Shown: positions 1,918 to 35,871, counted from the stretch's first letter. The stretch is DNA of 64,000 nucleotides from Patescibacteria group bacterium (GCA_041660005.1 JBAZXG010000003.1:835-64834), one strand, 5' to 3'. Numbers and translations are program-made. The notes: generated by a model not told the origin, from the letters alone.

Positions 1918-1929
1918 TCAAAATATGCT

Positions 1930-3188: not shown

Positions 3189-3202
3189 TTTGGTATTCGG
3201 CA

Positions 3203-4963: not shown

Positions 4964-4966
4964 TTT

Positions 4967-6268: not shown

Positions 6269-6402
6269 ACGTTGACGAGATAGTAAAAAAACACTACCGT
6301 TCCTACTTCGCTCTCGCTGTGCCCGAGCTACGAAGGACAAGTATTTCTGTTTATAACAGAGTTTGCCCTGCGTAGCTCTGGCGAAGCCAGAGCAGAGCAT
6401 GA

Positions 6403-6477
6403 GCCGCGTTCGTCTAATGGTTAGGACACATGGTTCTCATCCATGAAATACGGGTTCGATTCCCGTACGCGGTACCA
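6403..6477 (+). tRNA. tRNA-Glu (anticodon CTC), CCA encoded
   Basis: Cloverleaf by hand. Acceptor GCCGCGT/ACGCGGT (G1-U72 wobble). D-arm GTCT-AATGGTTA-GGAC. Anticodon stem CATGG/CCATG with loop TTCTCAT. T-arm ACGGG-TTCGATT-CCCGT. Discriminator A followed by CCA. Confidence 0.85.
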
Positions 6478-6482
6478 AAAAA

Positions 6483-6516
6483 ATTCAGTCGCCATAACGG
6501 CGAGTGAATTTTTTTA
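6483..6516 (+). terminator. Rho-independent terminator after tRNA-Glu / dcw operon
   Basis: 11-bp stem (attcagtcgcc / ggcgagtgaat, one mismatch), 5-nt loop, then TTTTTTT. Confidence 0.6.
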
Positions 6517-6585
6517 TACTTGCGCGTATGAGGAATCGAACCCAAGGATGAATTTTTATAAATAAAATTTGATAAAAAATCGGAC

Positions 6586-7383
6586 TCAATCATTTGACTC
6601 GTCCCAGATGCACCAAAACCATGTCCGATAACTGTCCGCTAACTTTTTACTTTTTAGCACAAAGAAAACAACGTCTTCATCAATATGTCCAACGCCAACA
6701 AAACCAGTGTGCGTAATGACGTAGTCTCCAAAAATATGAATGCCCGACGCTGTTGAATATTTTTTTGGCAAATAACGGTACTTGAGTGTTGCTGGAAACT
6801 CCTTAGCAAAGTTTGGAAGTTTAATTTTTACTTCCTGGTCAAATAAATGGATGAATGTAATTTTTTTCTTTTTTGCTTCTTGAAAAAAACGTTTCCCACT
6901 TACGGTCAAACGAGGGTCAAACCAGCCGCCTTTGGCGCCAATGAAATAACTATCTTCGCCGACCCGCAACACTTCGCGCCAAATATTTTTTAGCCCTTCA
7001 AACCCACGGTAGATGTACGCTTCTTCATCGATACGGCGTTCGTGGAACTTCTTTTTCAAAGCAGGCAGAATGTCCTCGAGGCGCTGCCGTTTCTCTGTTA
7101 GAAGCTCCAAAAGTTTGTCCGGATCCACGGCATTGTAATGGGTCTCGCCTGGTGTCAGTACTTGAAAGCATAACCCTTTGTCGAGCAGTCGCCGCATAGC
7201 ATCATAGGCGTTACGACGATGGATTTTTCCAACCGTCGCAATTCTGCTGACCGTAGATTCTCCTTTATCGAGCAGCGTTTCGTATATTCGCCACTCGTTA
7301 GGAGAGAGTCCGAGTATTTTATAAATTTCTTCGCTTAGCCTTTCCATAGTTGGTCCGTTATTGTGGTGGTGTTGGCCACTCAC
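6586..7383 (-). CDS. TrmB-family transcriptional regulator (N-terminal wHTH plus TrmB C-terminal domain)
   Basis: 265 aa. The N-terminus LSPNEWRIYETLLDKGESTVSRIATVGKIHRRNAYDAMRRLLDKGL is a TrmB-type HTH, and length and layout fit the TrmB sugar-regulator family. It is the only gene clearly on the minus strand in this stretch. Confidence 0.7.
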   Translation of the reverse strand: MSGQHHHNNGPTMERLSEEIYKILGLSPNEWRIYETLLDKGESTVSRIATVGKIHRRNAYDAMRRLLDKGLCFQVLTPGETHYNAVDPDKLLELLTEKRQRLEDILPALKKKFHERRIDEEAYIYRGFEGLKNIWREVLRVGEDSYFIGAKGGWFDPRLTVSGKRFFQEAKKKKITFIHLFDQEVKIKLPNFAKEFPATLKYRYLPKKYSTASGIHIFGDYVITHTGFVGVGHIDEDVVFFVLKSKKLADSYRTWFWCIWDESND

Positions 7384-7460
7384 TGGAAACCCTATAGGGT
7401 CTGTAATGTGAAGTCAAGGATGTGCCAAGGGCTTCATATTTTGAATATGTAACAATCACT

Positions 7461-8453
7461 ATGAAAAGATGGTTGATCTCGGCTGTTGTAATTATTGTAG
7501 TAGTCGGCTTTTTCATTTTTCGACCAAAAGCGAACAACGCTCTTAAGCACGTCACTGTTGGATTTCAGTCATCACCTCCGATGGCATTGTTGATGATTGC
7601 TAAAGACAAAGGTTTTTTTGAAAAGCAGGGTTTGGATGTGGAGCTAAAAGAATTTACGGCAGGCAAGTTTGCTTTGGGGGCTTTTCTCGGTGGCTCACTT
7701 GATTTTTCGGTTTCGGCGGATGTACCCCCGCTTCTTGCGGCTTTGCAAGGAAATCAATTTGTTGTCCCAGCACAACTTGTGAAGCAAACGAAAAGTGAAG
7801 TACGAGTAGTTGCAAAAAAGGACGGAGATTTAAATGATGCAGCGGCTTACTTTAAAGCAAAAAAGCGAAAGCTTGCAACTTTAAGTGGTGGCGGCCCAGA
7901 GTTCTTTACCTACGAGTTCCTGAATAAACTAGGAATTAAGAAAGAACAAATTGAAATCATCAACCAGAAGCCGGAGGATATGGTAGCGGCGCTCATGAGC
8001 GGAAGCGTGGACGCTATCTCTATGTTTGACCCCGTGGCGTATGTGGCCGAGCAGCAAATGGGGGACAATGCCATTATTTTTACTGACGAAGCGATATACT
8101 CAGAGCTTTACGTCATTGAAGCCCCTATATCGGTAAAGACAGATTCAGCCGTTTTGGAAAAATTTCTTTTGGCGCTGAAAGATGCTGAACAGTTTCTTCA
8201 AGAAAACCCCGATGCCGTCAAAGAGGTTGTTGCGAAGTATACAAAACTCGACAGAAAAACTGTTGATGGAGTTTGGGGAAACACTAACTTTGGCTTGTCT
8301 CTCACCCCTCAACTACTTGAATATTGGAAGAGGGAAGTAGCGTGGGCAAAGGATGTTGGTAAGATAGCAAACGACGTTGAAGTGCCAAACGTTGAAAATT
8401 ATATCTACAGTGCTCCGTTAAGAAAAATTGACCCAACAGCTGTCAGTTTTTAG
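7461..8453 (+). CDS. ABC transporter substrate-binding protein, NitT/TauT (SsuA/NMT1-like) family
   Basis: Signal/TM anchor MKRWLISAVVIIVVVGFF followed by an SsuA/NMT1-like periplasmic domain. The track ORF starts at 7422, but the ATG at 7461 directly precedes the signal peptide. First gene of a three-gene ABC operon. Confidence 0.75.
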   Translation: MKRWLISAVVIIVVVGFFIFRPKANNALKHVTVGFQSSPPMALLMIAKDKGFFEKQGLDVELKEFTAGKFALGAFLGGSLDFSVSADVPPLLAALQGNQFVVPAQLVKQTKSEVRVVAKKDGDLNDAAAYFKAKKRKLATLSGGGPEFFTYEFLNKLGIKKEQIEIINQKPEDMVAALMSGSVDAISMFDPVAYVAEQQMGDNAIIFTDEAIYSELYVIEAPISVKTDSAVLEKFLLALKDAEQFLQENPDAVKEVVAKYTKLDRKTVDGVWGNTNFGLSLTPQLLEYWKREVAWAKDVGKIANDVEVPNVENYIYSAPLRKIDPTAVSF

Positions 8454-8457
8454 ACGT

Positions 8458-9213
8458 ATGAAAAAGACGCTATGGTTTATTTTACCAATTATTGCTGTCG
8501 GGCTTGCGTGGGAAGTTGTTTCCCGTAGCGGAATTGTAAATCCATCACTATTCCCTCCCGTCTCAAAAGTTTTTCTTGCCCTGTGGGAGATGGTAAATTC
8601 TGGAATCATCATTACTGACGTAGGGAACAGTTTGTGGCGTTTACTTCTTGGTTTGTTTTTCGGGTCTGTAATTGGCATCGTTTTGGGGCTTATTACAGGC
8701 AGGGTCAAAAAAGTTTCTTCCTTACTTGTGCCAATCATTCAAGCATTAAGACCGCTGCCACCTGTGGCTATTATCCCTCTTGTTATTGTCTGGCTAGGAA
8801 TAGACAACACCGCAAAGATTTTTTCCATAGCTTTTGCTGTATTTTTCCCCGTTTGGATAAACACCTACATCGGGGCACAGCAAATTCCGCAAACATTTCT
8901 CTGGAGTGCTAAGTTGCTTACTACCTCTACGCTGAAGGTATTTTATCGAGTAATCTTTCCTGCAACACTACCCTTTGCCATCGCGGGTATACGTAGCGCA
9001 ATTGCCGTTAGTTATATTATGGTTTTCGTTTCCGAGTTGGCTGGAGCTTCTAGTGGACTAGGTTATCGCATTGCCATTGCTCAATCATCGTATCGTATAG
9101 ACGAAATGATAGCCGCTCTGATTGTTCTTGGCATTCTCGGTGCTTTAACCGATTACCTATTTGTTCTTTCAACAAAAAAGATGTTTCCTTACCTTGCCCT
9201 GCGATCGCAATGA
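8458..9213 (+). CDS. ABC transporter permease (binding-protein-dependent inner membrane component, SsuC/TauC-like)
   Basis: Six predicted TM helices and an EAA-like loop (AQSSYRIDEMIAALIVLG). An ATG at 8458 avoids overlap with the upstream gene. The 3' end overlaps the ATPase gene by 4 nt (ATGA). Confidence 0.8.
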   Translation: MKKTLWFILPIIAVGLAWEVVSRSGIVNPSLFPPVSKVFLALWEMVNSGIIITDVGNSLWRLLLGLFFGSVIGIVLGLITGRVKKVSSLLVPIIQALRPLPPVAIIPLVIVWLGIDNTAKIFSIAFAVFFPVWINTYIGAQQIPQTFLWSAKLLTTSTLKVFYRVIFPATLPFAIAGIRSAIAVSYIMVFVSELAGASSGLGYRIAIAQSSYRIDEMIAALIVLGILGALTDYLFVLSTKKMFPYLALRSQ

Positions 9214-9908
9214 AGCAAATTGAAGTAAAAAAGTTGTCAGTATCTTACGGTAACTTTGGCGTGCTCTGCGATATTGATTTTACGGTCGAGAAAGGGGAGT
9301 TTATCGTAATCGTTGGAAAATCGGGAAGTGGTAAGACGACCTTTCTTCACGCACTGGCAGATCTCATCCCGTTCTCTGGGGAGATTGATATTCCTGAAAA
9401 TAAAGGGGTTGTGTTTCAACACTACGCAGTTTTTCCGTGGCTGACCGTTTCAGAAAATATTGCCTTTGGACTTGACCGGTATTCAGAGGAAAAGCAACGG
9501 GAAGTTACTAGTGAACATTTAAGAATCGCTCAACTGGAAGGGAAAGACGATAGTTATCCTGCGGAGCTTTCAGGTGGTCAAGTGCAACGTGTTGCTTTGG
9601 CTCGTTCTTTGGCACACAGTCCAGAGCTTTTATTGATGGACGAACCGTATGGGTCACTGGATGCGTATACAAGAGACCAAATGCAAGAATGGCTTTTAGG
9701 TGTGTGGTCGGAGCATAAAAAAACAATCGTTTTTGTGACCCACAGTATTGAAGAAGCGATTTTTCTTGCAGACAGAATTTTGGTACTTAGCAACAAACAT
9801 TTTATTGAGGAACTCAAAGTTCCTTTTGGTAGACCAAGAAAAGAGGAAATAAAGTTTACGCCAGAATTTAATCAGCTACGAAAAAATATTTTTGAGTCCA
9901 TTAGTTAA
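9210..9908 (+). CDS. ABC transporter ATP-binding protein (NitT/TauT family)
   Basis: Walker A GKSGSGKTT, signature LSGGQVQRVALAR, Walker B LLLMDEP, H-loop VTHS. Confidence 0.9.
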   Translation: MKQIEVKKLSVSYGNFGVLCDIDFTVEKGEFIVIVGKSGSGKTTFLHALADLIPFSGEIDIPENKGVVFQHYAVFPWLTVSENIAFGLDRYSEEKQREVTSEHLRIAQLEGKDDSYPAELSGGQVQRVALARSLAHSPELLLMDEPYGSLDAYTRDQMQEWLLGVWSEHKKTIVFVTHSIEEAIFLADRILVLSNKHFIEELKVPFGRPRKEEIKFTPEFNQLRKNIFESIS

Positions 9909-10126
9909 ACGGTAGTAGTCGCTAGTTCATGGATGCTAGTCACCCGAAGAATTCTTTTCATACTACGTTGTTGACTTTATCTTTATTTTGAAACAAGATG
10001 CGGTTCATAGGAGGTATTCGAACGGTTTCAATAGACCGCATAGTAATCGTTTCGTGGCAAAAACATGGAATAAAGTAGCTAACTGTTTGCTGCTTATTCC
10101 CAACCGGTCAAAGAGGTACATTCGTC

Positions 10127-10648
10127 ATGGTAAACAGTCGTCTTTCCTTTCGTGACTTGGGACAGCCCGAGTTGGAGTTGGTGATCGGGGAGCACCACGG
10201 TGTGTTCGAGCTCCAGGCAGAACACAAAGGTCTGCGCTTCGTGGTAGACCTCACGAAGCGTGGAAGTCGGTGGCCCCACGCAGGGGACGTGTGGAAACTG
10301 CAGCCACTCTATTCTCCGCATGGTTCACGCGTCGTCTTCTGTGAACCACGCGAACTCATAAGGGAGCGAGTTCGTCCGCCTTACTTCGACGTTGCGCGTT
10401 TGGGCGCGCCTACCGTGGAGCTTCAGGAGACAATACACAAGAGGAAGCCTCAGCTCCATGCTCCGTACCAGAGACTCTTCAAGCTTGTGGTCGATCTGGA
10501 ATGGTGGGACGGAGAAACACCACAGGCGGGGCAAATCTGGATTCTCAAACCGCTGAGAACTCCGGATGGGTATCTCATTTTTTCCGAACCTGTTCGGCAC
10601 GTTGATCCTGACACTGTCGACAGCTTCGCCGAACGCGACAGGTGGTAG
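10127..10648 (+). CDS. Hypothetical protein with internal tandem duplication, encoded in a GC-rich segment
   Basis: 173 aa. Two homologous halves: LRFVVDLTKRGSRWPHAGDVWKLQPLYSPHGSRVVFCEP and FKLVVDLEWWDGETPQAGQIWILKPLRTPDGYLIFSEP. GC content is visibly higher than in flanking genes. No family recognised. Confidence 0.5.
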   Translation: MVNSRLSFRDLGQPELELVIGEHHGVFELQAEHKGLRFVVDLTKRGSRWPHAGDVWKLQPLYSPHGSRVVFCEPRELIRERVRPPYFDVARLGAPTVELQETIHKRKPQLHAPYQRLFKLVVDLEWWDGETPQAGQIWILKPLRTPDGYLIFSEPVRHVDPDTVDSFAERDRW

Positions 10649-10750
10649 CAGTTACGCCGCTCGAATAGGCTCGTGCCCTGTAAGTGAGTAGTCCTTCCAG
10701 GATGTATTCTGCGAGCTCAATCTAGAGCTCCTTACATCCACGTTTCTTTC

Positions 10751-10795
10751 GGCGCCGCCCAGGTTCTCCACCCGGGCGGCGTCTTCACTTTTGTT
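10751..10795 (+). terminator. Putative rho-independent terminator (GC stem cgccgccc/gggcggcg, 13-nt loop, T-rich tail)
   Basis: 8-9 bp GC stem at 10753-10781 followed by tcttcacttttgttatt, about 100 nt after the stop of 10127..10648. Confidence 0.4.
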
Positions 10796-11313
10796 ATTCG
10801 TCCTTGGACGCGTGATTAAGATTTAGTATCATAGTTCAAACTATGGTACTGACAGTTATTCTGTAAGAACTCAAGTAACTTCTCGGCCTATATGGGCGAG
10901 CGGAAATCAAAAGTCAAAAGGCAAAACTGCAAATCAAAAATTAAAAACTGTGCACAAACACCGCAGACTTCGCTTTCACTACCTACGCCGATCCTAAGGG
11001 ATTTGCATTGTAATCTTTCAAACCCCCTCATTGATCGGGAGAATGAATGCGCTCTCGGCTAAACCCCTGGTGTCCGGTCGTGGCAATGAGGGCGAAAGCA
11101 GGACGAATAAATTCAAGAGCATGTTTGAGCCGAATTATTAAAGTGAGGCGAGTTTGCTCTTGCTCGTCCTGCTGAGGAAGGAATGCCCGACCGGAGCACC
11201 CGGGGTGTCGTTCTTTTGGTGACTTTTCTTAGACAAGTAAGAAAAGTCACAACCTACAGCCCCGTCAGACGGGGCGAGGTTTATTGGGCCTAGGGTTTTA
11301 ATCCTTACTTACC

Positions 11314-11342
11314 TTGCTACGTAACATATTACGTAGCATAAT
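11314..11342 (+). promoter_or_regulatory. Promoter TTGCTA -17 nt- CATAAT with embedded 24-bp palindromic operator (tgctacgtaaca|tattacgtagca, 11315-11338)
   Basis: -35 and -10 hexamers with a 17-nt spacer, about 28 nt upstream of the nuclease start codon. A near-perfect inverted repeat (1 mismatch in 24) spans the -35, the spacer and the first base of the -10. Confidence 0.45.
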
Positions 11343-11369
11343 GGTTCTACAAATCATTTAAACAAAACC

Positions 11370-12122
11370 ATGTCCGATTATTACAAAGCAAACAGAACGA
11401 GAAATATTTACGATCCTAAGAGTAAGGAGCCGTTTAAATTATCTCGTTCAAAAATCGAAAATTTTTCATCGTGTAAGAAGTGTTTTTACCTTGACCGCCG
11501 ACTGGGTGTGGGACAGCCGTCGGGCTACCCATTAAATTTAAATATCGCGGTCGATACACTTCTCAAAAAAGAGTTCGACATTCACCGCGCAAAACAAAAA
11601 ACGCATCCGCTCATGAAAGCGTATGGGCTGAAAGCCGTACCCTTTGCTCACAAGATGATTAATGAGTGGAGAGAGAATTTTAAGGGTGTGCAGTTTCATC
11701 ATGAGCCGACGAATTTCATTATTTCGGGAGCGGTCGACGATCTCTGGCAAGATGAAAACGGTGAAATTATTGTGGTCGACTATAAGGCCACCAGTAAAAG
11801 TTCTCAGGTTAACCTCGACGCTGCTTGGCAAGACGGGTACAAAAGGCAAATGGAAATATATCAATGGCTACTTCGGAATAATGGTTTGAAAGTGTCGGAC
11901 ACGGGCTATTTTGTGTACTGCAACGGAAAGACAGATGCAGAAGCTTTTGACGCAAAGCTAGAGTTTGACATTGATTTATTGCCCTACACCGGCGACGACT
12001 CTTGGGTTGAAACGCGACTGCATGAAATTAAAAAATGCCTTGACGGAAACATGCCAGACGCAAACCCCAACTGCGATTATTGTAATTATAGAAAAGCAGT
12101 AAGTGAGGTTGATAATAAATAG
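11370..12122 (+). CDS. PD-(D/E)xK superfamily nuclease, Cas4/RecB-like, with N- and C-terminal CxxC pairs (putative Fe-S cluster)
   Basis: 250 aa. Catalytic core ...DDLWQDENGEIIVVDYKAT... (D...E-x-K arrangement). Four cysteines arranged as C-KK-C near the N-terminus and C-DY-C near the C-terminus, as in Cas4/AddB-type nucleases. No CRISPR array or other cas genes in the window. Confidence 0.65.
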   Translation: MSDYYKANRTRNIYDPKSKEPFKLSRSKIENFSSCKKCFYLDRRLGVGQPSGYPLNLNIAVDTLLKKEFDIHRAKQKTHPLMKAYGLKAVPFAHKMINEWRENFKGVQFHHEPTNFIISGAVDDLWQDENGEIIVVDYKATSKSSQVNLDAAWQDGYKRQMEIYQWLLRNNGLKVSDTGYFVYCNGKTDAEAFDAKLEFDIDLLPYTGDDSWVETRLHEIKKCLDGNMPDANPNCDYCNYRKAVSEVDNK

Positions 12123-12169
12123 ATTGACCGACTGAAGAACTAAGTTATAATAATAACATCCTTACAAAC

Positions 12170-12197
12170 TTGAGAATGTTGGTATGAGGTGTATACT
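12170..12197 (+). promoter_or_regulatory. Promoter copy 1 (TTGAGA -16- TATACT) within a 45-bp element repeated at 12486-12532. The predicted TSS coincides with the ATG at 12204, implying a leaderless mRNA.
   Basis: Sequence ataacatCcttacaaacttgagaatgttggtatgagGtGtat occurs twice, at 12150-12195 and 12486-12530, with three substitutions. The -35/-10 hexamers lie inside the repeat. Confidence 0.4.
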
Positions 12198-12203
12198 CTA
12201 GAG

Positions 12204-12491
12204 ATGAAAAAATTCAAAACTGCCAAACAGATGGAGCGCCACCTTAAGGGTATTGCTAACCATTACCGGATCGAAATTTTACTCCTGGTTGGGGATAAAG
12301 ATGGCATTACCCTTGAAGGTATAATTGAAACCATTAAAGCAAACGGGAAAACCATTGGTGAGCATACAAGGCGCCTTCAGCAAGCAGGCCTTATTAATAA
12401 GAGGTATCGGGGTAAATTTGTTGAACACGTTTTGACGCCGTACGGCAGAACATTTGTCCGGTTTCTAAAATCTTTTCAAGGTCTTCAATAA
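12204..12491 (+). CDS. ArsR/SmtB-family winged-helix transcriptional regulator
   Basis: 95 aa. HYRIEILLLV...ITLEGIIETIKANGKTIGEHTRRLQQAGLI matches the ArsR-type HTH and wing. The track ORF begins at GTG 12189, inside the putative promoter, so the ATG at 12204 is preferred. No metal-binding Cys motif is present. Confidence 0.65.
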   Translation: MKKFKTAKQMERHLKGIANHYRIEILLLVGDKDGITLEGIIETIKANGKTIGEHTRRLQQAGLINKRYRGKFVEHVLTPYGRTFVRFLKSFQGLQ

Positions 12492-12504
12492 CATACTTAC
12501 AAAC

Positions 12505-12532
12505 TTGAGAATGTTGGTATGAGATATATTGA
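12505..12532 (+). promoter_or_regulatory. Promoter copy 2 (TTGAGA -16- TATTGA / TATATT) upstream of the HExxH membrane protein
   Basis: Second copy of the 45-bp repeat. It overlaps the stop codon of the ArsR-like gene. Confidence 0.35.
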
Positions 12533-12535
12533 AGC

Positions 12536-13324
12536 TTGAAATTGAGTACCTGTATGTTTTTACCAAGCTTTATTTTCTTGATCGTTATCGTTGTGTTGCT
12601 TGTACTCTCGCGTCTTATCAGCCGGACGCTTTTTAAACTTTTGGGTGAAGGATGGTATATAGTACTTCTCTGGCCCGGCGTCATTGTTCATGAGGGGTCG
12701 CATTTTCTCGGCGCACTGCTTACCTTCACTCCTGTCCGAGGTTTTTCGCTATTGCCCGAAACTGGAGGGTCAGGGTCTCGCGTGCTCGGAGTTGTGCGTC
12801 ACGATCGTCCGAAAAACCCTTTTGCGTCCGTGATAATTTCAGGATTTCCATTAATTGGCGGAACTGTTGCCATTTGGTTATTAACTGTCTTTTTACTTCC
12901 CGGGCTATCATCGTCAATATTGACATCGGAATGGCAGGGTGGAGGGTATAGTAATCTTTTGAATTCTTTTCGTTTTTTAATAAAACGTGGATCGGAAGTT
13001 ATTTCTTTCGGGAGTTGGCAAACTTGGCTATTCCTTTATTTAAGTTTCACCATTAGTGCCCACTTGGCTCCTTCAAGCCATGATCTGAAGTACGTAGCAA
13101 AAGGTCTTATTGGTCTTGTTGTAATACTCGGTGCTCTCTACTGGCTCGCCAGTTTTATAAAAACATCAATGACCCACAATGTTCTCGTATGGCTCGTCGC
13201 GCACATAAATGAGGGTATCTCTAAAATTTTATTTGCTTTTCTTTACCTGGCTTTCATTTCAATCGTCGTCACTGTTGTGTCGCTACTTCTGCTGTCTATT
13301 AAAAAACGTCTTCGTCGTTATTAA
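12536..13324 (+). CDS. Integral membrane protein with HExxH zinc-metalloprotease motif (M50/M56/DUF3267-like zincin)
   Basis: 262 aa, about 6 TM segments. HEGSH motif at the end of TM2 (VIVHEGSHFLGALL). TTG start at 12536, alternative ATG at 12554. Confidence 0.55.
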   Translation: MKLSTCMFLPSFIFLIVIVVLLVLSRLISRTLFKLLGEGWYIVLLWPGVIVHEGSHFLGALLTFTPVRGFSLLPETGGSGSRVLGVVRHDRPKNPFASVIISGFPLIGGTVAIWLLTVFLLPGLSSSILTSEWQGGGYSNLLNSFRFLIKRGSEVISFGSWQTWLFLYLSFTISAHLAPSSHDLKYVAKGLIGLVVILGALYWLASFIKTSMTHNVLVWLVAHINEGISKILFAFLYLAFISIVVTVVSLLLLSIKKRLRRY

Positions 13325-13365
13325 GACTGTCTTCATTGCTGCTGCCTAGGTATATAATTAAACAC

Positions 13366-14136
13366 ATGGATACAACAGCGGTACAAGGGGTAGGTCTCGG
13401 CATATTTTTTAATGCCTTTGTTAGTGTTGTTGTTTCTCTGACAGCTCTCGCTCTCGTAGTATTTATTTTTCACAGATGGTCAAAACTTGATGGCATAATG
13501 AAGTCCTACTCCATTTTTTGGTCTACTGTCGCGGTCATTTGGATGTGCGCATTTATACGCTATGTTTTAGTAGCCACGGGGGTACCACTATTATCTATTC
13601 TCCCACTTGATTATTTTATTCAAGGAACAATTTTTTCTAGCGGCATTATATTGTTTTACTACCTTGGTCTTAGGATTACTAGTCGCACCCCTGTGGCAAT
13701 TTTTTGGGCTCTAGTGTCGGGGTTACTTGCGGCTGTCTCGCTCGTTTTTGTTTTTCGATCAGAAGGTATTGTTTATCCTGGAATAACGTATTTTGCTGCT
13801 GACGCCGAGTTAAACGTAGTTTCTTTTGGAATATTTGCTTTTGAAGTTTTTGTTGCTGCTTGTTTACTGGCGTATGACTTAATGACGCGGCTAAAACGCT
13901 GGAGGCATAAATTAGTTTCAGAGACATTATCGAACGCGCTTTACTCTTTTGGCCTTTTTCTCTATATCAGCTTGGCAGGACTTGATAACATGAAAGTGAT
14001 CAATGATTGGTCGCTCGTTGTTTTTCGAATTTTTTATTGTGGCGTTATCCTTTTCGTCTATATCGTTGTTGTGAGCGAGGAAGAAAACAAGGAGCAATTT
14101 ATTATATCGGCAGCACTTGAACAAAAAAGTTTGTAG
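13366..14136 (+). CDS. Hypothetical polytopic membrane protein (about 7 TM)
   Basis: ORF 13336..14136 with a TTG start. The ATG at 13366 sits about 7 nt after a TATATAAT box at 13351-13358, which suggests a leaderless start. Very hydrophobic, with an acidic C-terminal tail. Confidence 0.5.
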   Translation: MDTTAVQGVGLGIFFNAFVSVVVSLTALALVVFIFHRWSKLDGIMKSYSIFWSTVAVIWMCAFIRYVLVATGVPLLSILPLDYFIQGTIFSSGIILFYYLGLRITSRTPVAIFWALVSGLLAAVSLVFVFRSEGIVYPGITYFAADAELNVVSFGIFAFEVFVAACLLAYDLMTRLKRWRHKLVSETLSNALYSFGLFLYISLAGLDNMKVINDWSLVVFRIFYCGVILFVYIVVVSEEENKEQFIISAALEQKSL

Positions 14137-14218
14137 AAAGTTGTTTATTTTTATAGCTTCGACGCCGCACGGAGTTCCCTAAAATTGTGGGATCTCCGTG
14201 CGGTCGACTGTTGGCTGC

Positions 14219-14512
14219 TCAGGTGATTGTTACCGAGTAACGGCTCGGATCAGCGAGCACCTCCATGGTGTTCCGAATTACAGCCCATGCCTCCATCTGA
14301 GCGGCAAGCGTAACCTCAGAATCGTCGCGTTCCTTGGGGTCGTCGGGTATCGACGACCATGCTGTTGTGATAAGTCCGTCGAGTTTAGTTGCCATTCTGC
14401 TGAAAAAAACGCTGAGCCCCTCGCCAGCCGTGCTGACTGTATTTTGCGTAGTGCCCATTTCGGCAATCCCCTCGACAAACTGCCGTGCCGCTTCTATTGC
14501 GTTGGTTGACAT
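14219..14512 (-). CDS. Hypothetical small protein (97 aa), GC-rich, helical
   Basis: Only convincing ORF in a 530-bp GC-rich gap. GGAGG lies 14 nt upstream of its ATG on the minus strand. A stem-loop at 14170-14206 (cgcacggag / ctccgtgcg) follows its 3' end. Confidence 0.4.
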   Translation of the reverse strand: MSTNAIEAARQFVEGIAEMGTTQNTVSTAGEGLSVFFSRMATKLDGLITTAWSSIPDDPKERDDSEVTLAAQMEAWAVIRNTMEVLADPSRYSVTIT

Positions 14513-14672
14513 AGATCTTTCCTGGCCTCCTGTAGAGCATTACAAACACGAGAACGCCATGACATTAGCACAAGGAAGCTGGACTGACAACGACGAATTC
14601 TTCGATGCGGTAATGTGTATTTTTTCCAATGTCGTGCTATCGTCTTTGCATGTTGCTTTGTAAAACTATTCT

Positions 14673-15554
14673 ATGACCTGGGTTATCTTTGCGCTTCTTG
14701 CGCCGTTCACCTGGGCGTTCGTCAACCTTATTGATCGGTTTGTTATGTTGCGGGTGGTTCGTACGCCATTTGCCCCAGCTTTTGCATACAGTATTGTTGG
14801 CCTTGTTGGGTCGTTCTTAATTTATTCGTACTTTGGTTTTGAATACAGTTCAGCAAGTCACATTACTTTAGCGATTATTGTCGGCGTATTAAATTTAATT
14901 TCATCAATACTTTATTTATACGCGGCGCAGAGGGAAGAAATTTCTCGAATAGTACCGTTGTTGTACTTTGTGCCACTTTTCGTGAGTGTCTTTGCTGCCG
15001 TTTTTTTGAATGAAGTGTTTAGTGTTTGGAAGTATCTTGGCATCGCCCTTTTAATCATGGGGGCTATACTGGTAACCCACCGATCCGGAAAGTTAAGAGT
15101 GAGCAGAGCATTTTGGTTTATGCTCATGTCTGCTTTGTTTTGGGCAGCCTCCTCCGTTTTAGAAAAGTATCTTGTGCAAACAAATAATGTATGGACAGTG
15201 TATGGCTGGGTTCGCATTGGCGCGGGACTTGGTGCACCCATACTCGGCGTTATTGTTTGGAAAGAGCTCAAGCTTGTCGTAAAAACTCATGGTTCATCTC
15301 GATTAGTGCTGATGGGGGTCAACGAGTCAGTAAGTATCACTGCACAGCTTTTTCTATTCTTTGCACTTTCTCTTGGACCAGTAAGCTTGGTGAGCTCTCT
15401 AGGTTTAGTGCAGTCGTTTTTTGTGCTGCTCTTAACCCTAGTTGTTGGTATTTGGTACCCAAAGTTGCTTGAAGAGGAAATGACGACGAGAGTCGTGCTT
15501 CAAAAAGTAGTCGCAACGGTCTTAATGTTTTTTGGCGCGTTTCTAGTAGTTTAG
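14673..15554 (+). CDS. EamA/DMT-family transporter (drug/metabolite exporter, 10 TM)
   Basis: 293 aa with two EamA-like halves of about 5 TM each. Confidence 0.75.
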   Translation: MTWVIFALLAPFTWAFVNLIDRFVMLRVVRTPFAPAFAYSIVGLVGSFLIYSYFGFEYSSASHITLAIIVGVLNLISSILYLYAAQREEISRIVPLLYFVPLFVSVFAAVFLNEVFSVWKYLGIALLIMGAILVTHRSGKLRVSRAFWFMLMSALFWAASSVLEKYLVQTNNVWTVYGWVRIGAGLGAPILGVIVWKELKLVVKTHGSSRLVLMGVNESVSITAQLFLFFALSLGPVSLVSSLGLVQSFFVLLLTLVVGIWYPKLLEEEMTTRVVLQKVVATVLMFFGAFLVV

Positions 15555-15587
15555 CTCTTGGAGCATAGTAAAATGAGGTGGACTCCC

Positions 15588-15617
15588 TTGACATAAGGAA
15601 AGGGAAATATTTATACT
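15588..15617 (+). promoter_or_regulatory. Sigma70-type promoter of the hrcA heat-shock operon (TTGACA -18- TATACT)
   Basis: Consensus -35, near-consensus -10, placed immediately upstream of the CIRCE element. Confidence 0.6.
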
Positions 15618-15620
15618 GAT

Positions 15621-15647
15621 TTAGCACTCTTAATATCAGAGTGCTAA
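15621..15647 (+). promoter_or_regulatory. CIRCE operator (TTAGCACTC-N9-GAGTGCTAA), HrcA binding site
   Basis: Perfect match to the CIRCE consensus inverted repeat with a 9-nt spacer, 10 nt upstream of the hrcA start. Confidence 0.9.
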
Positions 15648-15656
15648 CGCTTCATT

Positions 15657-16376
15657 ATGAGCCAAAAGCTCTCAGAAAGGCAGGCAGCCATATTGGGTTG
15701 TCTTATTCGTGCCCATATAGAAACAGCCGCTCCAGTCGGTTCGCTGACTATCGTTGAACGAACGCGGATTGGTGCCAGTTCCGCCACCATCAGAAATGAA
15801 ATGGCGAACCTTGAGCAAATGGGTTATTTGAGAAGCCCCCACACTTCGGCTGGGCGCATTCCAACAGAGCAAGGGTACCGTTACTACCTTGAGTATTTGG
15901 TTACGCCGGCACTCATGCCAGATATTGAAGAGCGACGTATGCGTTCCATTCAACGGTCGTATGAAGACTTTGAAGAGCGTTTTCGTCAGCTGGCAAAAGC
16001 TGTTGCGGAGTTTTCAGCCGAGGGTGTCTTTCTTGCCTTTGGCAAGAATAATCTCTACTACACTGGTCTTTCGAATTTGTTTGCGCAGCCGGAATTCAGA
16101 GAGCAGCGTCAGCTCGTTGCCATGGGGCAGGTCATTGACCACCTAGACGAAGCGGTCTCAGAAATATTCGCCAGCGAGAGTGGAAATGATGTTACCGTTT
16201 TAGTGGGAAGTGATAATCCGTTTGGTAGAGACTGTAGTGTGATTCTGTTACGCTATGGTTCGAGTGGCAGCAACACCGAAAAAGGATTGTTCGGCATTCT
16301 CGGGCCAACGAGAATGGATTACGACAGGAACATTACGCGCGTTACGCGCGTTCGAGATTGTGTAAAATTAGAATAA
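15657..16376 (+). CDS. hrcA: Heat-inducible transcription repressor HrcA (short form)
   Basis: 239 aa. N-terminal wHTH LSERQAAILGCLIRAHIETAAPVGS. First gene after CIRCE, followed by grpE. Confidence 0.85.
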   Translation: MSQKLSERQAAILGCLIRAHIETAAPVGSLTIVERTRIGASSATIRNEMANLEQMGYLRSPHTSAGRIPTEQGYRYYLEYLVTPALMPDIEERRMRSIQRSYEDFEERFRQLAKAVAEFSAEGVFLAFGKNNLYYTGLSNLFAQPEFREQRQLVAMGQVIDHLDEAVSEIFASESGNDVTVLVGSDNPFGRDCSVILLRYGSSGSNTEKGLFGILGPTRMDYDRNITRVTRVRDCVKLE

Positions 16377-16382
16377 TCTTTT

Positions 16383-16895
16383 ATGACAGACGGTTCAGAG
16401 CAGCAAACAAAAAAACAGTCGCTAGAAAAGCGCATTGAGGAACTCGAGGCAACCCTTAAGGAACATACGGCTGGTTGGCAGCGGGCACGCGCCGATTATC
16501 AAAACCTTAAGCGCGAGTCCGAAGAAAAACAGCATTCCTACGCTGATTTGACGAGACGCCGTATGTTGCAGGATTTGTTGCCAATTTATGATTTATTGAA
16601 GCGGGCAACAGAGACCACACCGGACGCTGAGCACGTCACATCTTGGATTAGCGGAGTTCAGCAAATTGTCACAACCTGGAAAAATTTATTAACGCGATGG
16701 CAGGTAACAACCATTGACACTGAAAACAAATCGTTTGATCCGTCACTGCACGAAGCAGTTGGCACTGACGGTAATATGCAGGTTGGTGCAATTGTAAAAG
16801 AGTTAGAGGGTGGTTATATGGTGAATGGTGTTCTCGTCCGTCCGGCAAAGGTTATCGTTGGTACAAAGGAAGAAGGCAAAAACAAAGCGAGCTAA
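16383..16895 (+). CDS. grpE: Nucleotide exchange factor GrpE
   Basis: 170 aa. Coiled-coil N-terminus and a GrpE C-terminal beta-domain (NGVLVRPAKV). Position between hrcA and dnaK. Confidence 0.85.
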   Translation: MTDGSEQQTKKQSLEKRIEELEATLKEHTAGWQRARADYQNLKRESEEKQHSYADLTRRRMLQDLLPIYDLLKRATETTPDAEHVTSWISGVQQIVTTWKNLLTRWQVTTIDTENKSFDPSLHEAVGTDGNMQVGAIVKELEGGYMVNGVLVRPAKVIVGTKEEGKNKAS

Positions 16896-16919
16896 TTTCA
16901 TTTATTAACCTCTATTATT

Positions 16920-17342
16920 ATGTCTCGACTAATTCGTTGGAGTCCCGTGGTTCCCGATTTCTTCGAGGACACAGAAAAGTTTCTCGAAGAATATGGACTA
17001 TCTGGTGCAGCCGTGCTACCGGTTGATATTTATCAAACCGAGGATAGCGTCATTGTCGAAACGCCACTACCCGGCATAGATCCCAAAAACATTGAAGTTT
17101 CTGTTGATCATAATGTTTTGACCATACGCGGGAAAGTTGAGCATAAAACTGAGATTGACGAGAAGAACTATTATCGAAAAGAAGTGCGTAGTAACTCGTA
17201 TCACCGTGCAGTTGCCTTGCCTGTTCATGTTGACCAGGCGAAAGCTGAAGCAGACTACAAGAATGGTATGCTCATTGTCCGGTTGCCGAAAGCGAGCGAA
17301 CCGAACACTAAGACAATTCAAGTTAAGCGTTCGACTGCCTAA
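16920..17342 (+). CDS. Hsp20/alpha-crystallin family small heat-shock protein
   Basis: 140 aa. Alpha-crystallin domain (VDIYQTEDSVIVETPLPGIDPKNIEVSVDHNVLTIRG...AEADYKNGMLIVRLPK). Confidence 0.85.
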   Translation: MSRLIRWSPVVPDFFEDTEKFLEEYGLSGAAVLPVDIYQTEDSVIVETPLPGIDPKNIEVSVDHNVLTIRGKVEHKTEIDEKNYYRKEVRSNSYHRAVALPVHVDQAKAEADYKNGMLIVRLPKASEPNTKTIQVKRSTA

Positions 17343-17350
17343 TCTTAATT

Positions 17351-17412
17351 CCTCTCCCTATTCAGGGAGGGGGATCCGGGTGAGCCTAGAGTACGACTCA
17401 GGGTTCACCCGG
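17351..17412 (+). terminator. Two tandem intergenic hairpins between hsp20 and dnaK, possibly an attenuator or processing site. No T-tract follows on the + strand.
   Basis: Hairpin cctctccc-tattca-gggagggg at 17351-17372 and ccgggtga...tcacccgg at 17376-17412. Confidence 0.3.
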
Positions 17413-17458
17413 GTCACAAAAAAGTTAACTATCTTTAAAGCAAATTAATCTAAAATCT

Positions 17459-19378
17459 ATGGCAAAAATAATTGGAATCGACCTTGGTACGACAAATTCG
17501 TGTGTAGCAGTTATGGAGGGAGGAGAGCCGAAGGTAATAGAGAACCGCGAAGGAAACCGGACGACGCCATCGGTTGTGGCGATGTCGAAAAATGGTGACC
17601 GCCTCGTGGGTCTTGTTGCCAAACGGCAAGCAGTAACGAATCCCGAGAATACGATTTTTTCAGTGAAGCGTCTCATAGGTCGACGGTTTGAGGAGGACGA
17701 AGTGCAGCGCGACATTAAGCTGATGCCGTACCGAATTTCTAAATCAGGCGACGGCATTAAAGTTGCTATGAGCGGCAAGGATTATACCCCTCAAGAAATT
17801 TCTGCCATGGTATTGCAGCAGCTCAAAGCTGATGCAGAAGAGCGTCTTGGGGAAAAAGTAACAGAAGCCGTCATTACGGTTCCTGCATATTTTAACGATG
17901 CCCAACGTCAGGCGACCAAAGATGCAGGTGAGATTGCAGGACTAAAAGTTCGCCGCATCATCAATGAGCCAACGGCTGCAGCACTTGCCTATGGGCTCGA
18001 CAAGAAAAAAGACCAAAAAATTGTTGTCTACGATCTGGGGGGCGGCACATTTGACGTTTCAGTGCTTGAGGTGGGAGACGACACCGTAGAAGTCAAGGCG
18101 ACCAATGGTGACACCCATCTTGGTGGCGACGATTTTGATCAGGCCATCATTGAATGGACGATTACCGAGTTCAAGAAGGACCAGGGCATTGATCTTTCAA
18201 AAGATCGTCTCGCCTTGCAGCGCATTAAAGAAGCAGCTGAAAAAGCAAAAATTGAATTGACCTCAGCTCCAGAAACTGAAATTAGCCAGCCGTTTATAAC
18301 TTCGGACGCTGCTGGACCAAAACATCTTAACATCAAGTTGTCTCGCGCTAAGCTCGAAGACTTGGTAGGGAAGCTCGTAGAAAAAACCCTTGAACCCTGT
18401 AAAAAAGCGCTGGCTGATGCAAAACTAAAGACAACGGATATTGATGAAATCGTCATGGTCGGCGGTATGACGCGTATGCCACTCGTGCAGCAAACGGTTG
18501 AGAAGTTTTTTGGGAAGAAACTGCACCTCGGTGTTAACCCTGACGAAGTTGTGGCTATTGGCGCCGCGGTACAGGCAGGCGTATTGCAGGGTGAAATTAA
18601 AGATGTGCTGCTTCTTGACGTAACGCCGCTCTCGTTTGGCATTGAAACACTTGGTGGCGTCATGACAAAATTGATTGAGCGCAATACCACCATTCCAACT
18701 TCAAAATCACAAGTTTTCTCAACGGCAGCTGACAGCCAAACTTCGGTAGAAGTGCACGTTTTGCAAGGAGAGCGTGAAATGGCTGCAGATAACAAGTCTC
18801 TTGGGCGCTTCATTCTTTCTGGTATCCCGGCTGCCCCACGCGGTGTTCCTCAAGTTGAAGTAAGCTTTGATATTGATGCTAACGGCATTCTGAACGTGAA
18901 AGCCGTAGATAAAGCAACCAACAAAGAGCAAACCATTACCATTACTGCTTCATCCGGGCTCTCTAAGGATGAAATCGAGAAAATGAAAAAAGATGCTGAA
19001 CTGCACGCCGATGAAGACAAAAAGCGTCGGGAACTCATTGAACTTAAAAATAGTGCAGACGGTCTTGTGTATTCAACAGAGAAAACCGTCAAAGAGGCTG
19101 GAGACAAGGTGGACGCTGAGGTAAAGAAGTCTGTCGAGGAAAAGGTAGAAGCATTGAAAAAGGTTAAAGAGAGCGAAGACATCGAGGCAATCAAAAAAGC
19201 GTTTGATGAACTTGGTACGGTTATTCAGAAAGTTGGTGCAGATCTCTACAAAGCGACGCAAAGCAATGAGGGTGCGCCAGCAGAAAAAAAGGAAGAGGGT
19301 CCTGTTGATGCGCATTATGAAGAGAAAAAAGATGATGAGCAGCCAAAGTCAACAGAAGAAAAATCAAATGATCTGTAG
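17459..19378 (+). CDS. dnaK: Molecular chaperone DnaK (Hsp70)
   Basis: 639 aa. [24 protein letters not shown], and an EEVD-like acidic C-terminus. Confidence 0.97.
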
Positions 19379-19430
19379 TTGTTGGTGTAGTGGCGCCATT
19401 CGTACCTAAATTTATTCGACGAATTCTTAA

Positions 19431-19742
19431 TTGGTAATCCGTAATCATAACCATATGGCCGATCAAAAAAACATGCAGATTAAGGCGAGCGACGAAGCGC
19501 TCAAAGGAACGTATGCTAACCTCATGCAGGTTAGTCATCTGAAAGAGGAGTTCATTTTGGATTTTATGAATGTATATCCCTTTCAGGGAATCGGAACCCT
19601 AAACGCGCGGGTTATAGTGAGCCCTTCTCACTATAAACGCATGGTTGCCGCCATGCAGGAAAACCTTAAGCGTTACGAGGAAACACACGGCACAATCGCC
19701 GCAGGTGATGCACCGAGTGCGGAAGTTGGTTTTCAGGCGTAG
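19431..19742 (+). CDS. Hypothetical small protein (103 aa) inserted between dnaK and dnaJ
   Basis: Clean ORF. Start possibly at the internal Met (MADQKN...). No motif recognised. A GC hairpin at 19761-19782 (agcgccgcc-gtta-ggcggcgct) follows it. Confidence 0.5.
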   Translation: MVIRNHNHMADQKNMQIKASDEALKGTYANLMQVSHLKEEFILDFMNVYPFQGIGTLNARVIVSPSHYKRMVAAMQENLKRYEETHGTIAAGDAPSAEVGFQA

Positions 19743-19798
19743 AGACTTTTCTTTCTCGGAAGCGCCGCCGTTAGGCGGCGCTCCTGCTAACATTCACC

Positions 19799-20905: not shown

Positions 20906-21005
20906 TTTGCTGAGGATGACTTTGTCTTCGCTGTAAAAACAGTGTGGATCGCGCTATACTACTACCCATCCCGGTTACATTCTGATTAGAAATTACCTTT
21001 AGACT

Positions 21006-22400: not shown

Positions 22401-22439
22401 TTCGTAGTTATTTAGTTCGAGGCCTATACGTGCTACGCT

Positions 22440-25459: not shown

Positions 25460-25533
25460 TGGGCATACTTTTCTGGACGTAAAATGAACCCTTCGTTATA
25501 CTGGTTATAGTTACGTTACATCGGTGGTCGCGT

Positions 25534-26175: not shown

Positions 26176-26259
26176 TTGTTTGATGATAGGGTACATCGGG
26201 TATTTTGACCCGGTTTTGTCTTGGCTCAAATGATGCGCTAAACTGCCAACGACCATACT

Positions 26260-35829: not shown

Positions 35830-35871
35830 CATATATGGGACGTAACGCTCGTCGTGCTATAATATATATCT

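Follow-up and report, generated by a model that had tools for sequence, protein, structure and literature searches.

A probable mosaic of conserved lineage genes, a putative local regulon and lineage-specific DNA between an ABC importer and hrcA in a Patescibacteria genome

Gene content and local regulation

Positions 9909–14672 of the window (the whole 64-kb stretch of DNA that was analysed) hold an orphan gene, a hairpin-rich spacer, a Cas4-like nuclease gene, a small winged-helix (wHTH) regulator gene, two membrane-protein genes and a second orphan on the opposite strand, with an ABC importer on one side and EamA and hrcA genes on the other (Table 1).

Table 1. Features of the interval and of the adjoining segment (window coordinates).
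Feature	Position	Strand	Remarks
Indel segment	6487–11312		Missing from the tRNA-Glu/Cas4-like promoter interval of the closest relative found (L006–L011)
TrmB-like regulator	6586–7383	−	Inside the indel segment
SsuA/NMT1-type ABC importer	7422–9908		Inside the indel segment, with orf173 and the spacer
orf173 leader	9909–10126	+	AT-rich intergenic DNA, GC 34–38%; RBS AAAGAGG 8–10 nt before the ATG, read from sequence
orf173	10127–10648	+	173-codon orphan; two copies of a ~85-residue domain; compositional outlier
ORF-free spacer	10649–11312	+	About 12 stem-loops, listed from predicted helices
Intrinsic terminator of orf173	10751–10797	+	Within spacer
Promoter-like site	10805–10832	+	Within spacer
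144-nt irregular hairpin	11063–11206	+	46 pairs; symmetric purine-rich internal loop
Perfect 13-bp hairpin	11219–11250	+	Within spacer
Second terminator-like hairpin	11251–11283	+	Within spacer
Cas4-like promoter region	11313–11369	+	TTGCTA-17-CATAAT; palindrome TGCTACGTAA-CATA-TTACGTAGCA between the hexamers
Solo Cas4-like PD-(D/E)XK (RecB-type) nuclease	11370–12122	+	PF12705, E 4e-15
Promoter-like site, strong	12124–12151	+	TTGACC-16-TATAAT
43-nt element, two copies	12152–12194 and 12487–12529	+	Promoter/operator-like
wHTH regulator gene	12189 or 12204 to 12491	+	95/100 codons; between both 43-nt copies
Membrane HExxH protein	12536–13324	+	Remote site-2-protease (M50)-like putative metalloprotease; Patescibacteria-specific
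Multi-pass membrane protein	13336–14136	+	No named family; operon partner of the HExxH protein, gap 11 nt
GC-rich hairpin, 15 bp	14165–14203		Between convergent multi-pass gene and orf97; terminator-like for both, no T run
orf97	14219–14512	−	97-codon orphan, 54% GC; called by NCBI, JGI and Logan
Possible third partial element copy	14540–14554	+	13/15 of the 43-nt core; divergent orf97/EamA intergenic region

The Cas4-like protein retains the PD-(D/E)XK core and a conserved cysteine cluster, with D123/D124, D137-x-K139, Q160...Y164 and Cys35/38/184/223/235/238 invariant in 15 diverse homologues. More than 8000 homologues were found in varied contexts, many of them named Patescibacteria or Parcubacteria, the best 120 sharing 69–91% identity. 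As the initial annotation had proposed, the nuclease stands alone behind a palindrome, whose 10-bp arms lie in a promoter-like site; this promoter is 81% conserved with the closest syntenic relative found (L006–L011), where the palindrome is imperfect, and its conservation was not seen in 70+ other lineages. The protein falls just short of the PF01930 cut-off (22.6 vs. 22.7) and well short of that of TIGR00372 (33.6 vs. 65 bits), the gene has no cas1 or cas2 neighbours, the generic wHTH alone among the other ORFs of the interval matches a PADLOC cas model, and neither a CRISPR array nor a tandem repeat was found in the 64 kb. A CRISPR-associated Cas4 was rejected on these grounds. Solo Cas4 (pfam12705) PD-(D/E)XK nucleases have been described in CPR bacteria (Hudaiberdiev et al., 2017, PMC5704561), and the gene is one of these, stand-alone and vertically conserved in small-genome bacteria.

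Two copies of a 43-nt element, the only ones in 64 kb, lie directly 5′ of the wHTH and HExxH genes, overlap promoter-like hexamers and are unstructured as RNA (z about −0.3). The shared promoter element noted earlier before both genes is thus present, but it measures 43 rather than 45 nt; its copies are 93% identical. Since about 0.3 matches per window are expected by chance, the partial copy near EamA is only suggestive. The wHTH protein gave weak matches to ArsR/SmtB, SdpR and MarR models, all below cut-off; the ArsR-type repressor originally proposed survives as a weakly ArsR-like wHTH, which scores 28 bits on NF033788, a model whose cut-off is 55 (PF01022, E 0.015). This protein would bind the 43-nt element and so control its own expression and that of the protease/membrane-partner operon; such a regulon would amount to a switch of the membrane- or metal-stress type, not to a defence system. 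Because no wHTH gene was found next to HExxH homologues in other genomes, and because the one contig that preserves the downstream gene pair (L101) starts 44 nt before its HExxH gene, so that the upstream region lies beyond it, the regulon is supported by a single genome.

The proposed HExxH membrane protein was confirmed: H52-E53-x-x-H56 is invariant and falls inside a predicted transmembrane helix (residues 46–62 of the model, pLDDT 89). A second invariant motif, H176-L-x-P179-S180-x-x-D183, differs from the canonical NxxPxxxLDG. The window protein does not match Pfam PF02163, which matches 7 of its 22 relatives at E 0.11 or weaker; the family has 22 known members, and all those with a source name are Patescibacteria. 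We infer that it is a remote site-2-protease-like membrane metalloprotease, presumably with protease activity. Its partner, already described as a membrane protein, is multi-pass by hydropathy and gave no Pfam, PDB, PADLOC or PHROG matches. The two genes recur in the same order in L101 (42 and 37% identity), a homologue of the multi-pass protein (30%) lies near the Cas4-like gene in L006–L011 on the opposite strand, and HExxH homologues in four other genomes follow the conserved order HU, Na/Ca exchanger, EamA, glycoside-hydrolase-like gene, HExxH.

Beyond a GC-rich hairpin (fold z about −6 on both strands) lies orf97, the GC-rich opposite-strand orphan of the initial annotation, which three pipelines call. 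It is the sole member of its own 90% cluster, had no Pfam, NCBIfam, PADLOC, PHROG, viral or phage matches, and shows no strongly coding-like pattern (GC1/2/3 of 0.54/0.50/0.58). The supposed link between the interval and the hrcA operon found no support: a promoter of its own precedes hrcA, together with a perfect CIRCE operator (15621–15647, the sole copy in the window), and EamA–hrcA adjacency is kept, in a collinear region, in an Uhrbacteria contig.

Synteny and composition

In L006–L011 the gene order is mraZ...murE, tRNA-Glu, 258 nt, Cas4-like gene. BLASTN aligned window positions 6298–6486 with L006 9496–9686 (89%) and 11313–12172 with L006 9944–10807 (79%), and no similarity to this relative was found past the breakpoints at 6487 and 11312; homologues of the substrate-binding protein (SBP), permease and TrmB genes were not found in L006–L011 either. 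Because murE–tRNA-Glu there adjoins the Cas4-like gene, the indel comprises 6487–11312 and includes the ABC importer, which had been taken for a housekeeping flank but is missing from the relative together with the TrmB-like regulator. Comparing the adjacency of the flanks, as had been suggested, therefore did reveal an indel, but at 6487–11312 rather than 9909–14672, and the Cas4-like and multi-pass membrane genes are backbone common to the window and L006–L011. No closer relative was found in the collections searched, and at 53% protein identity for murE this one is distant, so the indel can be neither dated nor polarised, and the relative may instead have lost the segment.

GC content averages 46.2% over the window and reaches 55–58% at 10.1–10.8 kb (z 2.0–2.8 in 200-nt windows) and 55% in a second block at 14.2–14.5 kb; peaks about as high lie at 3.8 and 24.1 kb. 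In tetranucleotide usage the sole clear outlier is the ~0.7 kb at 10100–10800 (z 4.5, top 0.2%), a segment that is compositionally foreign. The GC-rich block placed at 10.1–11.3 kb is thus both GC-rich and foreign but stops near 10.8 kb, and the one placed at 14.15–14.66 kb is GC-rich, but its tetranucleotide z is only 0.22. Sliding-window analysis accordingly finds deviation in one segment but none across the interval as a whole (z 0.57), and the indel segment is no outlier either (z 0.97).

Pfam and NCBIfam scans identified no recombinase or integrase in the 10 ORFs scanned within 6.5–15.6 kb, a set that excludes the permease ORF at 8428–9213. The tRNA-Glu 3′ end occurs once (≤3 mismatches allowed), and the two ends share no repeat of ≥11 nt at either boundary pair (9909/14672; 6487/11312). 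Given also the lack of an island-wide composition shift, an integrative genomic island is not supported. Besides the Cas4-like protein, PADLOC matched nothing other than the generic wHTH, and nothing further came from PHROGs or the viral searches. Profile searches thus returned the Cas4-like match and left several ORFs unmatched, as anticipated, but gave no clustered defence systems, and a defence island was rejected.

The orphan gene orf173 and the hairpin-rich spacer

The GC-rich block at 10.1–10.8 kb holds an ORF overlooked earlier. Codon-position GC in orf173 is of coding type (GC1/2/3 of 0.67/0.40/0.62), with a GC3 of 0.62 against about 0.40 in neighbouring genes. Two homologues, both distant, were found among 1.8 billion proteins. 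Both lie on metagenome contigs, and genes for a T4SS pilin and for large LTD/PKD surface proteins are found on one of these. Support for a high-GC host as the source of the GC-rich DNA was not found. Searches against Pfam, NCBIfam and PDB profiles gave no sequence-level match, and the structure model resembles S1/TRAM-type OB-folds, confidently for the first domain only and poorly for the second. On this model orf173 is probably a tandem OB-fold, nucleic-acid-binding protein, and horizontal acquisition of its gene seems likely.

The ~700-nt ORF-free, hairpin-rich stretch recognised from the outset measures 721 nt (10649–11369), has fold z-scores of −12.3 (+ strand) and −9.6 (− strand), and contains 5 of the 22 150-nt windows that rank highest for structure across the 64 kb. 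It is the structure-densest region of the window. Rfam gave no match at the gathering threshold and, at E ≤ 10, terminator look-alikes only (11–17 bits). BLAST and covariance-model searches of the window and of 0.79 Mb of related loci found no homologue of the spacer, nor was one found in phages or plasmids.

A mosaic reading, its rivals and known systems

We favour, with some confidence, a mosaic of three layers over a single island. The first would be a Patescibacteria backbone, comprising the solo Cas4-like nuclease with its own promoter and the HExxH metalloprotease/multi-pass module, and extending just beyond the interval to EamA and the CIRCE-controlled hrcA operon. The second would be a local regulon, in which the ArsR/MarR-like wHTH protein probably acts on the duplicated 43-nt element. 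The third would be ~1.4 kb of lineage-specific DNA (9.9–11.3 kb), the distal end of the larger 4.8-kb indel, with a horizontally acquired orphan, its terminator and then a series of stem-loops. Because the interval consists of conserved lineage genes plus a small amount of DNA that looks foreign (the orphan orf173 and the hairpin spacer), it is mostly ordinary. That 9909–14672 is instead one variable defence or stress island, foreign DNA from a high-GC host inserted between housekeeping genes, now seems highly improbable. Two GC-rich blocks do exist, the PADLOC Cas4 models match the nuclease, whose gene adjoins restriction-modification and AAA ATPase genes in two other lineages, several proteins belong to no named family (Pfam, NCBIfam), as the initial annotation said, and the neighbourhood is unlike that of the closest relative found, where BLASTN collinearity breaks. 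However, the breaks fall at 6487 and 11312, the Cas4-like and membrane genes are conserved lineage genes, and the interval as a whole is compositionally unremarkable; integrase, flanking repeats, CRISPR array and further defence-model matches were all sought and not found, and the orf173 homologues, both on metagenome contigs, give no evidence for a high-GC host.

The mosaic account leaves one excess unexplained, since the structure of the spacer (z −12) exceeds the need of two terminators. A new structured ncRNA of ~0.3–0.45 kb, ending at 11251–11283, possibly bound by orf173 and acquired with it as an RNA–protein module, would account for that density, and we consider it unlikely. The internal loop of the 46-pair, 144-nt hairpin is purine-rich on both sides (AAUGAGGGCGAAA / UGAGGAAGGAAU), which suits a + strand RNA rather than a DNA palindrome, and a perfect 9-nt complement between CCCTCATTG (11025–11033) and CAATGAGGG (11085–11093) would allow alternative pairing or a pseudoknot. 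The spacer has a promoter-like site (10805–10832) and a terminator (11259–11283), the structure modelled for orf173 is similar to S1/TRAM domains that bind RNA, and orf173 and spacer share one lineage-specific segment. Yet the collections searched yielded no homologue from which covariation could be read, no large structured ORF-free region adjoins either orf173 homologue, the two strands overall hardly differ in fold energy or G-U counts, with a strand preference that flips among sub-segments, and the spacer, unlike orf173, has native-like tetranucleotide usage (z 0.58). The near-pure Watson–Crick helices, folding equally well on either strand, would suit functionless or structural DNA, made up of terminators together with the decayed remains of palindromes or MITE-like elements at a recombination-prone tRNA-side junction, with orf173 decaying or spurious. 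Two of the helices are indeed plain intrinsic terminators, conservation was not found in any data searched, the NCBI pipeline annotates just a 53-codon remnant of orf173, and its homologue in L013 is disrupted. This reading too we regard as quite improbable: no spacer hairpin has a second copy in the 64 kb, against the expectation for a MITE or REP family, and orf173 is intact over 173 codons, with an RBS, coding-type GC and 15 invariant positions of its family retained in both domains.

Among known systems, the 4.8-kb segment resembles tRNA-adjacent genomic islands in starting beside tRNA-Glu (10 nt after it), in its absence from a relative and in its partly deviant composition. It differs in having no integrase, duplicated tRNA 3′ end or direct repeats, what it carries is an ordinary ABC importer and a single orphan gene, and the genome compared is distant. 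Relative to S1, TRAM and cold-shock OB-fold domains, orf173 differs in giving no profile match in sequence and in its poorly modelled second domain. The HExxH protein departs from site-2 proteases of the M50 family (SpoIVFB, RseP, MJ0392) in scoring under the Pfam M50 threshold, in having neither a PDZ or CBS domain nor the canonical second motif, and in belonging to a small family. As in BlaI–BlaR1/MecI–MecR1 and SdpR–SdpI, a small winged-helix repressor-like gene precedes a membrane zinc-protease-like gene; the likeness here extends to the same operator-like element before both genes, and one of the weak NCBIfam matches is SdpR. The comparison is no more than an analogy: the module in the window has no sensor domain and no M56 or SdpI homology, and its wHTH–protease pairing was not seen in other genomes. 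The Cas4-like protein differs from CRISPR-associated Cas4 in its sub-cut-off scores and the missing cas1/cas2 and array, and resembles the solo Cas4 of CPR (PMC5704561) in its RecB-type D...DxK...QxxxY motifs and conserved cysteines, in standing apart from any CRISPR-cas locus, in its vertical conservation and in its occasional restriction-modification neighbours.

Gene order, composition and boundaries of the interval

The window derives from a Patescibacteria (CPR) metagenome-assembled genome (NCBI locus tags WC817_, 154-kb contig) with a mean GC content of 46.2% in the window and nearly all window genes on the + strand. The interval at 9909-14672 combines, as a mosaic, conserved CPR genes with a probable small regulon and with ∼1.4 kb of lineage-specific DNA that forms the end of a larger indel beside tRNA-Glu. 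The initial annotation had read it as one accessory or defense island; the individual features proved largely real, but the single-island reading found only partial support. Island hallmarks were lacking: no recombinase family matched among the ORFs scanned, no duplicated tRNA 3′ end was found, and neither boundary pair (6487/11312 or 9909/14672) carried a flanking repeat of at least 11 nt. Because hrcA has its own promoter and a perfect CIRCE operator (a TTGACA −35-like hexamer is seen ∼30 nt upstream), the genes of the interval lie outside the HrcA regulon.

Coordinates of the main features in the window and tetranucleotide z of selected segments
Feature	Position	Remarks	Tetranucleotide z
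mraZ-rsmH-ftsL-PBP-murE	1486-6268
tRNA-Glu	6403-6477
TrmB-like regulator		between tRNA-Glu and ABC importer, − strand
SsuA/NMT1-type ABC importer	7422-9908
Whole interval	9909-14672	no outlier	0.57
First GC-rich block	10100-10800	most deviant 700-nt segment in 64 kb (top 0.2%)	4.5
orf173	10127-10648	+ strand
Hairpin spacer	10649-11369	no outlier	0.58
Intrinsic terminator of orf173	10751-10797
Several short hairpins		within spacer
98-nt domain	10961-11058
144-nt irregular hairpin	11063-11206	46 pairs, one G-U; symmetric purine-rich internal loop
Perfect 13-bp hairpin	11219-11250
Terminator-like hairpin	11251-11283
Cas4-like gene	11370-12122
43-nt element, copies 1 and 2	12152-12194, 12487-12529	flank the wHTH gene
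HExxH gene	12536-13324
Multi-pass membrane protein gene	13336-14136	+ strand
Second GC-rich block	14150-14660	no outlier	0.22
orf97	14219-14512	− strand
EamA	14673-15554	directly past the interval
CIRCE operator, TTAGCACTC-N9-GAGTGCTAA	15621-15647	perfect; just 5′ of hrcA; sole copy in window
hrcA-grpE-hsp20-dnaK-dnaJ		downstream of EamA
Outlier segment	44.4-50.4 kb	top outlier at 4.8-kb scale	3.2

The two GC-rich segments were confirmed (55–58% at 10.1–10.8 kb and 55% at 14.2–14.5 kb; 200-nt windows, z 2–2.8), with comparable peaks elsewhere, at 3.8 and 24.1 kb. When composition was instead measured as the tetranucleotide distance of each segment to the whole window, the expected deviation held for the first GC-rich block but not for the interval as a whole, and with low values for the hairpin spacer and the second GC-rich block, orf173, a 173-codon orphan, is alone within it in looking foreign. 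A 2318-codon ORF occupies 44074-51030, and its surroundings deviate more than the interval does.

No close relative was present in the collections searched. An hrcA scan of GTDB species genomes yielded only four loci, all distant, and even the best of these breaks off inside EamA; an EamA scan of metagenomes found no locus. Each interval protein looked up was alone in its own 90% cluster, except orf173, which was grouped with its own 53-aa fragment. Downstream, an Uhrbacteria contig is collinear with window positions 14688-26428, which indicates that EamA-hrcA adjacency is conserved; this contig ends inside EamA, and the upstream order is not visible.

For the upstream side, we compared the window with loci L006-L011, whose Cas4-like protein is the nearest to that of the window (91% identity). 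Here mraZ...murE and tRNA-Glu are followed, after 258 nt, by the Cas4-like gene; next come a single gene and, on the other strand, a 30%-identical homologue of the multi-pass membrane protein. Window positions 6298-6486 match these loci at 89%, no similarity is detectable across 6487-11312, and similarity picks up again at 11313, so that the window carries an extra 4.8 kb, comprising the TrmB-like gene, the ABC importer, orf173 and the hairpin spacer; because L006-L011 is a distant relative (murE 53% at the protein level), "extra" implies no direction or age. Between its Cas4-like and membrane genes, the window also has two additional genes, wHTH and HExxH. The neighborhood thus does differ from that of this relative, as the island reading anticipated, but the breakpoints are 6487/11312: the ABC importer, previously taken as a housekeeping flank, is inside the variable segment and absent from L006-L011, and the Cas4-like gene is backbone. 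Just past tRNA-Glu and its terminator, a tRNA T-arm-like remnant (6515-6545, − strand; reverse complement GGGTTCGATTCCTC) was called by neither ARAGORN nor Rfam; it has a 10-nt motif, GGAATCGAAC, in common with the L006 spacer after tRNA-Glu, a match no better than in shuffled sequence.

A strain-level variable slot 3′ of the Cas4-like gene was considered for L006-L011 and rejected, as the loci do not differ over 5.2 kb (100% identity) and annotation-pipeline artefacts account for their differing gene lists. SRR18595301, the source sample, has the Cas4-like gene alone on a 948-nt contig in its Logan assembly; this contig is cut at 11237 and at 12184, with the next one beginning at 12157. The run shared by the two copies of the 43-nt element (28 nt) is shorter than k = 31, if that is the Logan unitig k-mer, so strain-level variation is possible at both flanks of the gene (11237 and 12157-12184).

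The Cas4-like gene

The Cas4-like protein matches PF12705, with RecB-type motifs and six cysteines invariant, and falls below the Cas4 equivalog cut-off; the window contains no CRISPR array. More than 8000 homologues were returned, the best 120 of which are 69–91% identical and spread over many CPR lineages. The gene is the solo Cas4 previously described as over-represented in CPR and as passed on mostly by vertical descent (PMC5704561). Across 80 metagenome loci with the gene, the window's other genes were absent, the L006 group excepted. Its palindromic promoter is common to the L006 group only, where it is imperfect. A conserved RNA 5′ of the gene was rejected: L006 has no more than the final 57 nt, which form the promoter, in common with the window, and the upstream DNA of 70 other lineages is unrelated. 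In two other lineages (L019 and L020), the solo Cas4-like gene lies directly 3′ of restriction-modification, AAA_14/DUF4143 ATPase and SDH-protease genes, with a conserved lipase-like and DUF4012 pair downstream.

The chief value of the analysis is a correction, in that a seeming defense island consists of conserved Patescibacteria genes with one small foreign patch between them, and such novelty as exists comes from orphans belonging to known kinds.

orf173 and the hairpin spacer

The GC rise of the first block is real, but the initial annotation missed the ORF that it contains. orf173 has a ribosome-binding site and a coding-type GC distribution by codon position (0.67/0.40/0.62); annotations conflict here, with NCBI PGAP calling only the last 53 codons (WC817_02570) and JGI the full 173. 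A word-indexed search gave no match. When HMMER was run in full over 1.8 billion representatives, three matches emerged, one being NCBI's 53-codon call itself and the other two sharing 44–49% identity across one domain. Each half of orf173 can be aligned to the other half and to both homologues (35–43% identity, 15 invariant columns), and on these alignments we regard the domain family as real but very rare. The homologue in locus L013 (3206-3589) is disrupted, and an IS200-type Y1 transposase gene lies ∼1.2 kb away; it ends at a stop, and a partial second copy of the domain (GETWQLQPLRLSPSGLIVFCAP) follows in a different frame, the whole being a frameshifted or decayed tandem-domain gene. IMG/VR scans, PHROGs and a BFVD fold search gave nothing significant for a viral or phage origin of orf173.

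The ORF-free, hairpin-rich stretch was confirmed as 721 nt, the second-longest gap in the window. It folds into about a dozen stem-loops and does so far better than dinucleotide shuffles (z −12.3 for the + strand, −9.6 for the − strand). A sliding map of the whole window at 150 nt gave 22 windows with z ≤ −3.5, of which five lie in this stretch. Evidence on the strand is mixed: the + strand folds better over the first 260 and last 90 nt, the − strand over 10900-11060, and the long hairpin equally on both. Elsewhere in the window, the longest ORF-free gap houses a bacterial class A RNase P RNA (59379-59751, 181 bits), five other gaps of at least 300 nt (735-1171, 28457-28835, 35830-36144, 40094-40569 and 63396-64000) lack Rfam matches at the gathering cut-off, and a 150-nt window between the hsp20 gene and dnaK (17326-17475) is strongly structured (fold z −6.6).

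Several identities for the spacer were weighed. A known RNA was rejected, as the spacer had no Rfam match at gathering in a scan of the whole window, at E ≤ 5 in one of 5 kb or at E ≤ 10 in one of 0.8 kb, and ARAGORN found no tRNA or tmRNA in the spacer. A repeat family or MITE was likewise rejected, as no part of 9.9–11.4 kb has a second copy in the window. BLASTN searches of phages, plasmids and 100 fetched loci returned no homologue, nor did a covariance model built from the 144-nt hairpin sequence alone match anything in 0.79 Mb. The spacer may be a non-coding RNA of no assigned class or else structural debris, and we do not count it as a discovery. It is highly improbable that orf173, as a tandem S1/TRAM-like OB-fold protein, and an adjacent 0.3–0.45-kb multi-hairpin transcript form an undescribed, horizontally acquired RNA-protein module, in which the two purine-rich internal-loop strands of the 144-nt hairpin would bind the two OB domains; neither orf173 homologue has a large structured neighbor. 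The predicted tiny tandem OB-fold family, with three members among 1.8 billion representatives, may be a lead, as may the unique 0.7-kb hairpin cluster outside any Rfam family.

The wHTH gene, the 43-nt element and the membrane pair

The wHTH protein matches ArsR/SmtB, SdpR and MarR models weakly, each below cut-off. The element reported before the ArsR-type and protease genes occurs in exactly two copies (93% identical), but is 43 rather than 45 nt long. Copy 1 directly follows a near-consensus promoter (TTGACC-16-TATAAT, 12124-12151) and stops ∼10 nt 5′ of the regulator ATG; copy 2 ends ∼25 nt 5′ of the protease ATG. Inside the element lie promoter-like hexamers and AACAT-N16-ATGTT, a short inverted repeat. 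A function as RNA structure was rejected (fold z about −0.3), and the simplest reading is a shared operator/promoter, by which the wHTH gene would be autoregulated and the protease operon co-regulated. The divergent region between orf97 and EamA contains a 13/15 match to the element core at 14540, but chance alone would give ∼0.3 such matches per window. orf97 is itself an orphan matching nothing in any library tried, with nothing significant in IMG/VR scans, phage tblastn or PHROGs.

Only 22 homologues of the HExxH protein were found, and all with a source name are Patescibacteria. H52, E53, H56, H89 and an AHLAPSxxD motif are invariant, and the model is of good quality (pLDDT 89). The family profile matches RseP (E 0.0056) and seven members match PF02163 weakly. 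We read the protein as a putative remote S2P-like metalloprotease rather than as an established M50 member. The multi-pass membrane gene, of no named family, starts 11 nt after it, and the pair is kept in order in one further locus, L101 (42 and 37% identity), indicating a conserved module. Loci L014-L018 (four other genomes, two named Patescibacteria by NCBI) share the conserved order HU, Na/Ca exchanger, EamA, glycoside-hydrolase-like, HExxH; the HExxH-EamA linkage thus recurs, arranged differently from the window. Found almost only in Patescibacteria and here apparently under a duplicated operator, the putative metalloprotease and its membrane partner could offer a handle on regulated membrane proteolysis in poorly understood episymbionts. 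The arrangement of wHTH gene, element and protease resembles BlaI-BlaR1 and SdpR-SdpI in outline only.
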